Shown: positions 12,797 through 21,415 of the stretch, piece after piece
Numbering within the stretch: position 1 is the stretch's first letter
Layout: each line of letters opens with the position of its first letter
Assembly (NCBI GenBank): GCA_003565775.1
Contig: PXAT01000060.1
Location: 14,222-78,221, forward strand
Length of the DNA stretch: 64,000 nucleotides
From: Ectothiorhodospiraceae bacterium
Lineage (GTDB): Bacteria > Pseudomonadota > Gammaproteobacteria > Nitrococcales > Aquisalimonadaceae
Direction: 5' to 3'
Program-made: the position numbers and the translations under genes
Notes under the pieces: model-generated
Databases searched by the model: none
Told to the model about the DNA's origin: nothing
What the model saw: only the letters and a program-made list of their open reading frames with translations

Positions 12797-12830
12797 CACG
12801 AAACGGGCCCGATCAGGCGTCGGGCCCGGG
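12797..12830 (-). terminator. Hairpin after etfA
   Basis: Minus strand reads GGGCCCG-acgcctgat-CGGGCCC followed by GTTTCGTG. Confidence 0.4.
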
Positions 12831-12895
12831 GACATCCCGCCAAAGCGCGTCAGTTTGCCAGACTCGGCCACATGGGACGATGCGTGTCTCGATCG

Positions 12896-13861
12896 TTAAT
12901 CGAAGTGCTGGCGAAGTTCCTGACCGACCTCGAACATGTCGCCCACCACGCCATAGCGCGCCACATTGAAAATCCCTGCATTGGCATCCGAGTTCACGGC
13001 AATGATGTTTTCAATGTGCTTCATCCCGGCCAGGTGCTGCACCGACCCGGAAATCCCGAGTGCCAGGTAGAGCCGGCAACTGCTTGCGGTCTTGCCGGAA
13101 TAACCGACCTGACGCGCTTTCGGCAGCCAGCCGGCATCAGCAATCGGACGGGAACAACCCAATACCGCGCCCACCTGATCCGCGAGTTCGGCGAACTCCT
13201 CCACGTTCTCCTCTTCGCCGACGCCACGGCCGATGGACAGGATGAACTCCGCAGCCGGGATATCCACTCCACCCTCGCTGGGCGGGTCGATGAACTCCAG
13301 ATGACGACTGCGGACCGCAGTGTCAGGCACGGCCAGGGTGGTGACCGAGCAATCGGTCGCACCTTCCGCTGCGGTGAAGGCGCTCGGCCGCAGGGCCAGG
13401 ACCACACGCTCGCGGCCCGGGAACTCGATTTTCGCGTGCGCCCGCTCGCCATAGGCACCGCGCACGGCGACCACCTCGCCGTCATCGACCTGGATAGCGA
13501 AGACATCGGTGGCGAAACCGGCTGCAGCACGCACGGCCAGTGCTGCACCGTAGCCCCAGCCGTCGACACTGTGCGACATCAGCACAAGAGCCGGATCCCG
13601 CTCCTCGACCGCCTGCAGGGCCGCCGCCACATGCAGATCCGGCTGAAACTCATTTGCCTCCACCGGCAGCAGCAGCACCTCGTCAACACCATCGAGCTTG
13701 ACGCTGTCCGCCAATGCCTTCGGATCGCCGGCGATGATCGCCACCGACAGCGAGCCGCCGATGTCGGCCTTGACCGCGCGCGCCGCACCGATCAGTTCCT
13801 GCGTCACCGGGCTCATGACCCCGCGCCGCTGCTCTGCAATAACCAGAATTCCCTGTGCCAT
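12896..13861 (-). CDS. etfA: Electron transfer flavoprotein alpha subunit
   Basis: 321 aa. ..ILVIAEQRRG.. at the N-terminus, and the C-terminal FAD segment ..GCSRPIADAGWLPKARQVGYSGKTASSCRLYLALGISGSVQHLAGM. Confidence 0.9.
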   Translation of the reverse strand: MAQGILVIAEQRRGVMSPVTQELIGAARAVKADIGGSLSVAIIAGDPKALADSVKLDGVDEVLLLPVEANEFQPDLHVAAALQAVEERDPALVLMSHSVDGWGYGAALAVRAAAGFATDVFAIQVDDGEVVAVRGAYGERAHAKIEFPGRERVVLALRPSAFTAAEGATDCSVTTLAVPDTAVRSRHLEFIDPPSEGGVDIPAAEFILSIGRGVGEEENVEEFAELADQVGAVLGCSRPIADAGWLPKARQVGYSGKTASSCRLYLALGISGSVQHLAGMKHIENIIAVNSDANAGIFNVARYGVVGDMFEVGQELRQHFD

Positions 13862-13863
13862 GA

Positions 13864-14655
13864 TCAGCCCCCCATGACTTCTTTGACGATTGCCGCGATG
13901 CGCGCGGCCTGTTCCGCCGGCGTTCCCTCGATCATCTCGGCCTGCCCCTTGTCGGGCAGATACATTTCCCGGACCCGGGACCCCCTCGCCTGCTCACCGA
14001 TATCCTGATCCTCGAGGCCGAGCTCATCGGGTGACAGTTCCTCGATGGGGATGGATCGGGCCTGCTTGATTCCTCGCAGTGACGCGTAACGCGGCGTGTT
14101 GATGCCGAGCTGGATGGTCAGCACAGCCGGACAGTCCACCTCCAGTCGCTCGCGCAGACCGCCCTCCAGTTCACGTTCCACAATCGCCGTGGCAGCACCG
14201 GGAGCGTAGTCGAGGGCAACCACCACCGCTGCGTGAGGCCAGCCCATGAAGGCGGCCATGGCAACACCGGTAGCGGAAAAGCCCAGGTCCGAGGACTGCG
14301 TTCCGGCCAGCACCAGATCCGGCGCCTCGCGTTGTGCCACTGCGGCAAGAACCCGGGCAATCACCAGCGGGTCGGCATCGGCGATCACATCGTCCCAGAT
14401 CCGGATTGCACGATCCGCCCCCTTGGCAAGACAGGTACGCAGGGCGTCCTCGGTATCGTCGTCGCCCACGGTGACGGCCACCACCTCGATGCCGTCGTTC
14501 GCCTCCTTGAGCTGAAGGGCCGCCTCCAGCGAGTAGTCGTCCCACTCGTTCAGCTGCAGATCGACAAAATCGGGATCCACATCCCGTCCGTCGTCGCGCA
14601 ACTCGAAGTCATCCTCGACCAGGGCCGCCTGTTTGACGGGAACTAGAATCTTCAT
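13864..14655 (-). CDS. etfB: Electron transfer flavoprotein beta subunit
   Basis: Track ORF is 13864-14697 (TTG). ATG 14655 (MKILVPVKQ) has an AAGGAGAGGAAAG RBS. Its stop lies 2 nt before the etfA ATG. Confidence 0.9.
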   Translation of the reverse strand: MKILVPVKQAALVEDDFELRDDGRDVDPDFVDLQLNEWDDYSLEAALQLKEANDGIEVVAVTVGDDDTEDALRTCLAKGADRAIRIWDDVIADADPLVIARVLAAVAQREAPDLVLAGTQSSDLGFSATGVAMAAFMGWPHAAVVVALDYAPGAATAIVERELEGGLRERLEVDCPAVLTIQLGINTPRYASLRGIKQARSIPIEELSPDELGLEDQDIGEQARGSRVREMYLPDKGQAEMIEGTPAEQAARIAAIVKEVMGG

Positions 14656-20523: not shown

Positions 20524-20593
20524 GATTTTCCTCCCGAACGCGTCATCAGCGCCTGGATTTTTGGGTAAAGCGGACGGAGACCCCGTCCTCGTC

Positions 20594-21310
20594 TCAGGAA
20601 CTGCGCATCGGCCTGGCCGAAACCACAGTTCCAGGTGAATCGGACGGCGGGACCTGTTTCAGGCCGGCCGGTACCGTGACCGGCATGTAGCGATCCCAGT
20701 GCAGGGCATCGGCAGACCAGCCAAGCTGGGCAGCGGCCGCCAGCAGTGCATCGACGAACGGAATCGGCCCCGCGCAGTAAACGTGGGTGCTCTGCTCGGG
20801 CCTGCCGATCACGGTACGCAGGTCGGGGCGCCCTTCCCCGGCGGTGTCGTGGAACCGAACGCAATGTCCGAATTCCGTCTGCAGTTCTGTGAGGAGTGCG
20901 CTCGCAGCGATGCCACGACCGATCCAGCAAAGCCGCATCCGCGCATCGGTGGTGCTCAGCGCGCGGGCCAAGGGCAGGAGCGGCGCCACTCCGAGGCCGG
21001 CTCCGATCAACCGCAAGGATGCGGGCCTGCCCTGCAAGGGCATGCCGTTGCCAGGCCCGTCCAGTCGAAGCACCTCTGACAGTTGTGGCGTTCTGTCTGC
21101 CTCACCGTCACAGTCCGCGATCAGCACCTGGTAGCGATCCGGCGCTGGCCTTGCCGCCACGGAGACCGGAACCGGGCGCATGCCGAGTCGGGCGAGACGT
21201 ACGTGATCGCCGGGCGTCAGTGGCGGCAGGGCTCGTCCGTCGCGGGTCTGCAGGGACAACCGGCGCACGGCCGGCGCGACAAGCTCGCTGCTGCACACGG
21301 TGACCTCCAT
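20594..21310 (-). CDS. FNR/PDR-type flavin reductase-like protein lacking a ferredoxin domain
   Basis: Track ORF is 20594-21499. ATG 21310 (MEVTVCSS..) has an AGGA RBS and lies downstream of the -24/-12 element. ..[16 protein letters not shown] is a GxGxxP nucleotide-binding motif. No C-terminal 2Fe-2S Cys cluster. Confidence 0.6.
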
Positions 21311-21399
21311 CGATTCCTGCACGATCCACCTCCAGGTGTTTTGCCGAAAGCATCTGCGCATGCAGAGGCCGGGTTTCGTGTATTGCTGCAGGGTGGGGT

Positions 21400-21415
21400 A
21401 GCACTGCCTGTGCCA
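21400..21415 (-). promoter_or_regulatory. Candidate sigma54 (-24/-12) promoter of the six-gene dehydrogenase/ETF operon
   Basis: Minus strand reads TGGCACAGGCAGTGCT (TGGCAC-N5-GTGCT, GG-N10-GC), about 90 nt upstream of ATG 21310. Confidence 0.55.

Follow-up and report, generated by a model that had tools for sequence, protein, structure and literature searches.

A putative sigma-54-driven trimethylamine-oxidation module joining trimethylamine dehydrogenase, its electron transfer flavoprotein and an EtfD-like membrane protein in a relative of Methylonatrum kenyense

Six neighbouring genes lie on the minus strand of a 64,000-nt stretch of DNA from an Ectothiorhodospiraceae bacterium (contig PXAT01000060.1), referred to here in its full length as the window. 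By comparison with known sequences and structures, they encode a trimethylamine dehydrogenase (TMADH), the two subunits of an electron transfer flavoprotein (ETF), a membrane Fe-S protein related to EtfD, a protein with LRV repeats and a protein with an FNR-like fold. We determined gene coordinates from the listing of open reading frames (ORFs) and from direct reading of the window, and both place the six genes where an initial annotation, made from the letters alone, had put them. Pfam likewise bore out the domains proposed there for five of the six products, the FNR-like protein being the exception. The genes and the elements flanking them, in the direction of transcription of the six, are as follows.

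21633-23624, plus strand: divergent sigma-54 activator with GAF, Sigma54_activat (AAA+) and HTH_8 domains; a public gene call starts at 21684 and gives 646 aa
21493-21537, strand not assigned: inverted repeat GTCGCAAAA-N27-TTTTGCGAC, candidate upstream activating sequence, 78-122 nt upstream of the -24 element
21400-21415, minus strand: putative sigma-54 -24/-12 element TGGCAC-N5-GTGCT, TGGCACAGGCAGTGCT, assigned by sequence and conservation
20594-21322, minus strand: FNR-like gene, 242 aa, with GTG 21322 preferred as start over the earlier 21310
18331-20523, minus strand: trimethylamine dehydrogenase gene (tmd), 730 aa, matching PDB 1djn/2tmd
16106-18232, minus strand: gene for an EtfD/DgcB/FadF-type membrane Fe-S protein, 708 aa, matching PDB 9ojn
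14698-16104, minus strand: gene for an LRV/HEAT-like alpha-solenoid protein, 468 aa, matching Pfam LRV
13864-14655, minus strand: etfB, ETF beta subunit, 263 aa, matching PDB 1o94_C
12896-13861, minus strand: etfA, ETF alpha subunit, 321 aa, matching PDB 1o94_D
12804-12827, minus strand: GC-rich hairpin after etfA, 8-bp stem, dG -19.5 kcal/mol, z = -2.2

The two tight junctions reported initially are present: the membrane protein gene and the LRV gene are separated by a 1-nt spacer (TGA-G-ATG at 16108-16102), and 2 nt lie between etfB and etfA. The remaining spacers measure 70 nt (FNR-like gene to tmd), 98 nt (tmd to the membrane protein gene) and 42 nt (LRV gene to etfB), and a terminator scan found no terminator-like site between any of the six genes, which would be transcribed together. 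For the first gene, GTG 21322 is the more likely start, giving 242 aa; a GGAGG sits 6 nt before it, the start ATG of the Methylonatrum kenyense orthologue aligns to it, and the public gene call for an identical metagenome contig begins there too.

The assignment of the 730-aa protein to the TMADH family, made by eye in the initial annotation, held up. The protein aligned without gaps to residues 1-726 of the Methylophilus methylotrophus W3A1 enzyme (1djn/2tmd; E = 0, 1295 bits), with 72.7% identity over the 726 aligned residues. Pfam recovered Oxidored_FMN (2e-102), an old yellow enzyme (OYE)-like second domain (2e-65) and Pyr_redox_2 (1e-16), and the protein has the three-domain build of TMADH, an FMN TIM barrel followed by two Rossmann-like domains. 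In the alignment to W3A1 TMADH, the cofactor and catalytic positions C30, Y169, H172, R222, D267 and C345/348/351/364 were kept, as were the substrate-bowl residues Y60, W264 and W355, together with S74 and W105, and the ETF-docking residue Y442. We take Cys30 to carry 6-S-cysteinyl-FMN, Cys345/348/351/364 to hold the 4Fe-4S cluster and Tyr169, His172 and Asp267 to be catalytic, and we count Arg222 with these functional positions. The sole exception among the cofactor, catalytic and substrate residues checked was the surface residue Val344, at the ETF-docking face, which is Thr in the window protein. We therefore identify the 730-aa protein, by its sequence, as a TMADH orthologue with covalent FMN, a 4Fe-4S cluster and ADP.

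Two other flavoprotein identities were set aside. A 2,4-dienoyl-CoA reductase or other OYE, the identity against which the initial annotation had asked its reading to be checked, gave 128 bits in the PDB comparison (FadH, 1ps9) against 1295 for TMADH (1djn). Histamine dehydrogenase (6de6 and 3k30) reached about 530-550 bits, well under the TMADH score, and NCBIfam returned only matches under cutoff, such as mycofactocin OYE and BaiCD.

We surveyed one genome per species and gathered 80 loci encoding a relative at least 73% identical. The closest is that of M. kenyense AMT 1, whose TMADH is 95% identical. Positions 60, 74 and 105 are the discriminators between TMADH (Tyr60/Ser74/Trp105) and dimethylamine dehydrogenase (DMADH; Gln60/Thr74/Phe105). 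Paralogues of the Q60/T74/F105 type do exist in the surveyed loci (L010 copy 2, L051, L039, L085 and L098), so that these positions separate two types in real data; the DMADH-type proteins also carry F442, and come from several metagenome loci and from the second gene copies of M. kenyense, where that copy stands alone, and of Hyphomicrobium zavarzinii. The window protein has Y60/S74/W105, the TMADH type. Thus, while the initial annotation had regarded the substrate as undecidable by eye, the N-terminal barrel and these three specificity residues allow it to be decided at the level of prediction, as trimethylamine (TMA).

The ETF encoded in the same cluster appears to be the cognate partner of this enzyme. 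Pfam assigned ETF to EtfB and ETF plus ETF_alpha to EtfA, and for both subunits the best PDB match was the ETF of the TMADH complex (EtfB: 1o94_C, E = 6e-98, next-best 1e-40; EtfA: 1o94_D, E = 5.5e-95, next-best 7e-44). The beta recognition loop (P189-I197, with Leu194) reads PRYASLRGI, identical to that of W3A1 ETF, and the CSRPIAD motif of EtfA keeps the equivalent of alpha-Arg237, an Arg that stabilises the anionic semiquinone (PMC12630350). The one-electron role of W3A1 ETF with TMADH has been described (PMC12630350). By these sequence comparisons, etfB and etfA are orthologues of the genes for TMADH's cognate W3A1 ETF, and the private ETF that the initial annotation had placed in the operon can now be named.

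The 708-aa protein carries a Fer4 dicluster and CCG domains (CCG 1e-16) in Pfam, and its only significant sequence match in the PDB was EtfD of Mycobacterium smegmatis (9ojn, E = 3e-67). Foldseek, queried with an AlphaFold model (pLDDT 67), returned 9ojn as the sole significant match (E = 7e-24, TMq 0.61) over 748 columns that include the membrane domain, with NarI among the weak matches. We mapped the published EtfD cofactor ligands (PMC13083937) onto the protein via the alignment and judged invariance over 18 orthologues. All eight ligands of the cubane clusters D3 and D4 (C317, C320, C323, C327, C381, C384, C387 and C391, aligned to EtfD C301/304/307/311/412/415/418/422) were invariant. For the noncubane cluster D2, which in M. 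smegmatis has five Cys and one His as ligands, C590, C625, C626, C665 and H540 were kept and Cys712 was replaced by an invariant D668. All four Cys of the linear 3Fe-4S cluster D1 were replaced, by D466, N501, D538 and S541, again invariant among the orthologues. The haem-propionate Arg was kept, and the transmembrane residues H89 and H251, both invariant, are candidate haem-b ligands of a predicted N-terminal five-transmembrane (5-TM) domain.

DgcB and FadF, too, are without the D1-coordinating cysteines, and have been argued to take electrons from ETF directly at the D2 equivalent (PMC13083937). Because the D1 ligands are absent here as well, we assign the 708-aa protein, on its sequence, to the DgcB/FadF subtype of EtfD homologues rather than to the mycobacterial EtfD subtype. 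It is most likely a putative ETF:quinone oxidoreductase for TMADH's ETF; public annotations call it "(Fe-S)-binding protein", "heterodisulfide reductase-related" or "putative FadF". The membrane Fe-S/CCG protein with which the initial annotation had ended its electron path is, at the level of homology, a full-length counterpart of EtfD (9ojn).

We then counted gene order in the 60 species loci that extend 7.6 kb or more downstream of tmd. The order tmd-etfD-LRV-etfB-etfA was found in 49 of them, including M. methylotrophus (L044), Methylophaga, Methylotenera, Methylovorus, Hyphomicrobium, Paraburkholderia and Aromatoleum. Nine, among them Zoogloea, some Ferrovum and several metagenome-assembled genomes, had the same order minus LRV only, and the other two held a solitary DMADH-type gene. 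The arrangement is thus the norm for TMADH rather than a peculiarity, and a paradigm nearer than the DgcAB system proposed in the initial annotation is the TMADH/ETF system of M. methylotrophus, which has the same cluster in its genome. Genes for an amino-acid-family permease and for dimethylamine monooxygenase (dmmABC) border the cluster in most genomes; the window contains neither.

Some surveyed loci carried additional dehydrogenase genes. The DMADH-type genes with Q60/T74/F105/F442 lie at 10001-12208 of L051 (M. kenyense), at 402-2609 of L039 and at approximately 10527-12736 of L085 and L098; some are solitary, and others follow etfD-LRV-etfB-etfA in loci where the 4.8 kb of upstream sequence retrieved contains no tmd. 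The solitary ones presumably rely on the ETF and EtfD that the tmd operon encodes. Ferrovum-like loci contained TMADH-type genes in tandem (L054 12245-14434; L103 and L105 2581-4770), and in L103 and L105 both the tandem arrangement and the Y/S/W type were confirmed. In the second TMADH-type copy of L054, two residues of the catalytic triad are changed (His172 to Asp and Asp267 to Asn), which suggests an altered or inactive paralogue. A Thr at position 344 marks a small TMADH lineage made up of the window gene (18331-20523) and loci L001-L005, L050, L055 and L071.

Pfam placed LRV in four stretches of the 468-aa protein (2e-29) together with LRV_2 (2e-14), giving an alpha-solenoid that lacks both a signal peptide and any cluster motif. 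Across its homologues, all annotated as hypothetical, the invariant features were one Cys-Pro pair and a C-terminal EDPYxLxR motif, and C203 was the only invariant Cys. In a metagenome survey seeded with this protein, every orthologue with enough flank lay between etfD and etfB, and two of these loci showed just a DMADH-type gene within the retrieved flank. Compared with M. kenyense, dN/dS was 0.22 for the LRV gene and 0.28 for the FNR-like gene against 0.04-0.08 for the catalytic genes, values that are approximate at a dS near saturation; the LRV and FNR-like genes thus change at several times the rate of the catalytic ones, yet under purifying selection. The founder of the LRV family, from Azotobacter vinelandii, has an N-terminal 4Fe-4S domain, and we rejected an Fe-S protein of that kind here on finding the single invariant Cys. 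The LRV solenoid is most likely a non-catalytic accessory of the TMADH/DMADH-ETF-EtfD system, either a protein-protein scaffold or an assembly factor.

The product of the first gene gave nothing significant in Pfam (DmmA-like_N, E = 0.002, was under cutoff). The FNR-like fold that the initial annotation proposed for it was nonetheless recovered from an AF2 model (pLDDT 67), for which Foldseek matched 7ylr (3e-16), a CYP116B reductase and 2pia (2e-14) at TMq 0.65-0.70; "reductase", the other half of that proposal, is doubtful. Close homologues numbered only 4 among 5.8 billion proteins, all from the Methylonatrum lineage, while a profile search gathered 8768 relatives, mostly of about 320 aa and phthalate-dioxygenase-reductase (PDR)-like. 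Aligned with DmmB-type reductases, all four Methylonatrum-lineage sequences had the RxYS flavin motif changed to PVS(V/I), with the Arg deleted, and the GGS phosphate-binding segment deleted as well. The protein stops about 30 residues past the NAD domain, with no C-terminal 2Fe-2S domain and no Cys motif, and partly retains the nucleotide motifs GxGxxP and (C/A)GP. It is probably a degenerate DmmB/PDR-type derivative rather than an active reductase. A DmmA or DmmB subunit of dimethylamine monooxygenase was considered and rejected, there being no dmmA or dmmC in the window and the flavin and Fe-S motifs being lost. In the Ferrovum and Aromatoleum loci L054 (9187-9951) and L065 (8969-9760), FNR-like genes without Fer2 also lie directly upstream of tmd and keep RxYS and GGS; the 2Fe-2S domain may thus have been lost beside tmd on more than one occasion.

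Upstream of the FNR-like gene, the -24/-12 element claimed initially is present (TGGCACAGGCAGTGCT at 21415-21400), and its reading as a sigma-54 promoter is supported by its conservation and by the activator gene beside it. Relative to M. kenyense, 21 of 22 nt were kept across the -24/-12 region, ATCTGGCACAGGC(A/G)GTGCTACC, amid otherwise diverged intergenic DNA, and a GTCGCA/TGCGAC half-site inverted repeat occupies the equivalent place in that genome. The divergent gene is 73% identical to its counterpart at the same position in M. kenyense; its Pfam domains were read on the identical public contig, and NCBIfam families of sigma-54 regulators matched at 1e-98 to 1e-60, none past cutoff. The operon is thus predicted to be driven from a sigma-54 promoter, with the inverted repeat at 21493-21537 as a candidate binding site for the activator. 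At the other end, the hairpin noted initially after etfA does exist (12827-12804), but it has a weak U-tract, GUUUCGUG, was missed by the terminator scan and is unconserved in M. kenyense. That scan gave no terminator after etfA, its three hits in the region all falling within genes, and we regard the hairpin as a weak candidate for a terminator.

Sequence and structure comparison thus provides the identities of the TMADH, the ETF and the EtfD-like protein, along with the conservation of their cofactor ligands, gene order and promoter. We consider it very likely, on this comparative evidence, that the locus is a sigma-54-driven respiratory module for trimethylamine oxidation, leading from TMADH through ETF and the EtfD-like protein to quinone, in a relative of the methylotrophic gammaproteobacterium M. 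kenyense. TMADH would demethylate TMA oxidatively to dimethylamine (DMA) and formaldehyde at its covalent FMN and hand electrons on one at a time, through its 4Fe-4S cluster, to the FAD of the ETF encoded alongside it. Reduced ETF would then be reoxidised at the cytoplasmic face of the EtfD/DgcB-type membrane protein, from which electrons would travel to the quinone pool over a single noncubane cluster of the CCG type, a pair of cubane 4Fe-4S clusters and haem b. The acceptor is presumably ubiquinone, given the proteobacterial host. The divergent GAF-domain enhancer-binding protein would activate the sigma-54 promoter of the operon. For the last part of this path, in which the EtfD-like protein would take electrons from ETF and reduce quinone, we infer function from homology. 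The initial annotation had proposed just such a self-contained path, from an amine dehydrogenase through a private ETF to a membrane Fe-S/CCG protein instead of the canonical ETF-QO (ETF:quinone oxidoreductase), and all three identities support it at the homology level. TMADH and its ETF are among the best-studied interprotein electron-transfer pairs. In the literature, in which subscription journals were thinly covered, we found no paper saying where electrons go after TMADH's ETF, and no description of a tmd-etfD-LRV-etfBA operon, of its EtfD-type component or of its LRV gene, which is weak evidence given that coverage.

Several observations weigh against this reading, in whole or in part. 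Taken by itself, the -24/-12 pattern is no rarer than expected at random (4 matches with one mismatch in the window versus 2.2 expected), and the element is credible because it forms a conserved island with an upstream inverted repeat and an adjacent divergent activator gene. The downstream end of the operon is uncertain, as the hairpin is weak and unconserved. Sequence alignment of the membrane domain of the 708-aa protein to 9ojn gave only the ferredoxin segment, and the fold search was used instead; within that domain, H89 and H251 are candidate haem ligands by conservation and position only, in a model of pLDDT 67. The same thinly covered literature yielded no paper testing an EtfD-type acceptor for TMADH's ETF, again weak evidence. 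The LRV gene is absent from nine of the 60 clusters, so LRV is not essential to the electron path. Finally, the dehydrogenase belongs to an intermediate lineage, being 75% identical to the canonical TMADH clade and equally so to the DMADH-type clade, which are mutually only 65-67% identical.

This last point gives some weight to the view that the enzyme mainly uses DMA or another small amine. The C-terminal third of the protein is slightly nearer DMADH, T344 is common to the window enzyme and the DMADH type, and 26 of 85 diagnostic sites are DMADH-like. Against this, 48 of those sites are TMADH-like (11 are neither), and the barrel (alignment columns 61-240) is 80-84% identical to TMADH but 61-69% identical to DMADH. 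The discriminator residues are those of TMADH, and a triple change to Q/T/F reportedly shifts TMADH preference toward DMA, according to engineering by the Scrutton laboratory. The closest genome, M. kenyense, has a separate DMADH-type gene, which is consistent with division of labour. We therefore consider a substrate other than TMA improbable, and because the lineage is intermediate, the TMA assignment rests on the N-terminal barrel and Y60/S74/W105. The mixed affinity of barrel and C-terminus could reflect early branching or gene conversion with a co-resident dmd paralogue. We likewise doubt strongly that the FNR-like protein works as an NAD(P)H-dependent flavin reductase, which might supply the chain with electrons or withdraw them, for instance to bring about reductive activation or to serve a dimethylamine monooxygenase as its reductase. 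Its modelled FNR/PDR fold, its partly kept nucleotide motifs, its distant relation to DmmB (whose gene comes after etfA in many tmd clusters) and its place at the head of the operon under purifying selection would all suit such a role, but the changed RxYS motif and the missing GGS segment and 2Fe-2S domain argue against catalysis, as do the lack of a dmmA or dmmC partner within the window and the restriction of close homologues to the Methylonatrum lineage.

The membrane protein, too, can be read otherwise. Rather than oxidising ETF, it might serve as a subunit of the dehydrogenase or as a reductase, of disulfides or of something else, while a canonical ETF-QO encoded elsewhere reoxidises ETF. 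A direct-subunit role is how DgcA-DgcB is often drawn, and the family descends from the heterodisulfide reductases HdrDE/HdrBC (PMC13083937). However, a gene of the 708-aa type adjoins etfBA in 58 of the 60 loci, and accompanies etfBA even where the linked dehydrogenase is of the DMADH type. In M. smegmatis, the EtfD clusters are shielded and fully coordinated and have been read as non-catalytic, and mycobacterial EtfD interacts with ETF and is required for ETF-dependent respiration (PMC13083937). Electron exit from TMADH to ETF is itself structurally established (PDB 1o94). Together these points make a role outside ETF oxidation quite unlikely, and we retain the EtfD-like protein as the predicted acceptor for TMADH's ETF.

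Whether the LRV protein is a true third partner of the TMADH/DMADH-ETF-EtfD chain is a more tentative matter. Approximately 80% of TMADH clusters keep LRV between etfD and etfB, and it also occurs in clusters where the sole dehydrogenase gene linked within the flank retrieved is DMADH-type. It might dock ETF on the tail-less DgcB-type EtfD or act as an assembly factor for TMADH, a possibility that we rate as unlikely. When TMADH is produced recombinantly in E. coli, its flavinylation is only partial. An LRV adaptor would replace the job predicted for the disordered C-terminal region of mycobacterial EtfD, and if the partnership were true, LRV and the flavin-less FNR-like pseudo-reductase would add a pair of uncharacterised accessory proteins to an electron-transfer system known from textbooks.

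The window locus itself adds little beyond one further example of a widespread cluster, centred on a flavoenzyme system that is among the best characterised. Its residual interest lies in the ETF-to-EtfD step for TMADH, in the conserved LRV protein and in the lineage that stands between TMADH and DMADH, which could shed light on how substrate specificity evolved. An EtfD/DgcB-type gene stands beside tmd and etfBA in nearly every TMADH-bearing species, the model organism included, and this offers a testable post-ETF acceptor. It would extend the recently solved EtfD family to methylated-amine respiration, of relevance to nitrogen and carbon cycling in marine and soda-lake settings.

Other genes of the window provide supporting context for methylated-amine metabolism, notably a GcvT/DmmD-like gene and a soxBDA operon like those for sarcosine oxidase and N-methylglutamate dehydrogenase. 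Two of the neighbouring genes are listed here.

11581-12771, minus strand: PAS-only protein, 396 aa, with two PAS domains and no output domain (Pfam PAS_3 4.7e-35)
6423-7619, minus strand: GcvT-like tetrahydrofolate-binding protein, DmmD-like (Pfam GCV_T 2e-63)

The PAS-only gene lies directly downstream of etfA both here and in M. kenyense, and its product is 67% identical in L002; it may be a sensor co-transcribed with the operon. PAS-domain genes with partial similarity (about 30-60% of length) also occur near tmd in several other genera. The GcvT/DmmD-like protein is 52-54% identical to the products of tmd-adjacent genes in Methylophaga and Paraburkholderia, and homologues were present in 43 of 81 loci. 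It is likely, by sequence, to be the formaldehyde/one-carbon acceptor for N-demethylation. Immediately upstream of its gene lies a -24/-12-like motif, TGGCATTCACATTGCA (7643-7628), and the gene may be a further unit under sigma-54 in the same regulon for methylated amines.

Toward the left edge of the window (region 1-3234), a soxB-family gene (1897-3234) and a soxD-family gene (1608-1877), both on the minus strand, are joined by a SoxA-like open frame that runs past the edge. These look like an operon for a heterotetrameric sarcosine oxidase or N-methylglutamate dehydrogenase, and a second GAF-type sigma-54 activator (3533-5470, plus strand) lies divergent from them. An EamA-family transporter gene (8635-9708, minus strand) and a gene for a small protein of about 109 aa (10250-10678, minus strand) encode products 51% and 35% identical, respectively, to those of genes just upstream of tmd in Methylophaga (L021 5528-6861), and may be transport-related accessories of TMA metabolism. 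We also checked 31-64 kb for related genes: all ten ORFs scanned there (31.9-46.0 kb) were housekeeping genes, including uvrC and those for a CDP-alcohol phosphatidyltransferase, fumarase, adenylosuccinate lyase and malate synthase G.

Among known systems, the W3A1 TMADH is the same three-domain Fe-S flavoprotein, 73% identical and with the checked cofactor and substrate residues kept except Val344; the window enzyme differs in belonging to the intermediate lineage and in the V344T change at the ETF-docking surface. The Hyphomicrobium X-type DMADH shares the fold and cofactors, and the window enzyme is about 75% identical to the products of the DMADH-type genes of L051, L039 and L010 copy 2, but that type has Q60/T74/F105 and F442 where the window protein has Y/S/W and Y442. 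The W3A1 ETF (complex 1o94-1o97) has the identical recognition loop and the same semiquinone-stabilising Arg. At the level of the locus, the genome of M. methylotrophus carries the identical order tmd-etfD-LRV-etfB-etfA, with a permease upstream and dmmABC downstream, and without the FNR-like gene or the sigma-54 activator of the window.

DgcA-DgcB with EtfAB in Pseudomonas aeruginosa is likewise a TMADH-family flavoprotein and an EtfD-type membrane Fe-S protein clustered with a private etfBA. DgcA acts on another substrate, in dimethylglycine demethylation, and is a distant paralogue, whereas the window protein is predicted to be a TMADH orthologue; the dgc cluster is not known to contain an LRV gene. 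DmmB and phthalate dioxygenase reductase share the two-domain FNR fold of the window's FNR-like protein at 23-31% identity, and differ from it in having the 2Fe-2S domain, RxYS and GGS, and CGP in place of AGP. The Azotobacter vinelandii LRV protein, founder of PF01816, shows the same repeated LRV alpha/3-10 solenoid motif, while the window protein has the single invariant C203 and no cluster motif. As for the membrane protein, Bacillus subtilis FadF and DgcB resemble it in missing the D1 cysteines (PMC13083937). Mycobacterial EtfD (M. smegmatis 9ojn; Rv0338c, an ETF:menaquinone oxidoreductase) matches it in modelled full-length fold, with the predicted 5-TM domain, the ferredoxin-like dicluster and the CCG domains, in all D3/D4 ligands, five of six D2 ligands and the haem-propionate Arg, and, by prediction, in its functional pairing with EtfAB. 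The window protein differs from mycobacterial EtfD in being without the D1 ligands, in having Asp for one D2 Cys, in being without the approximately 30-kDa disordered C-terminal tail and, on our reading, in serving an amine dehydrogenase rather than beta-oxidation.

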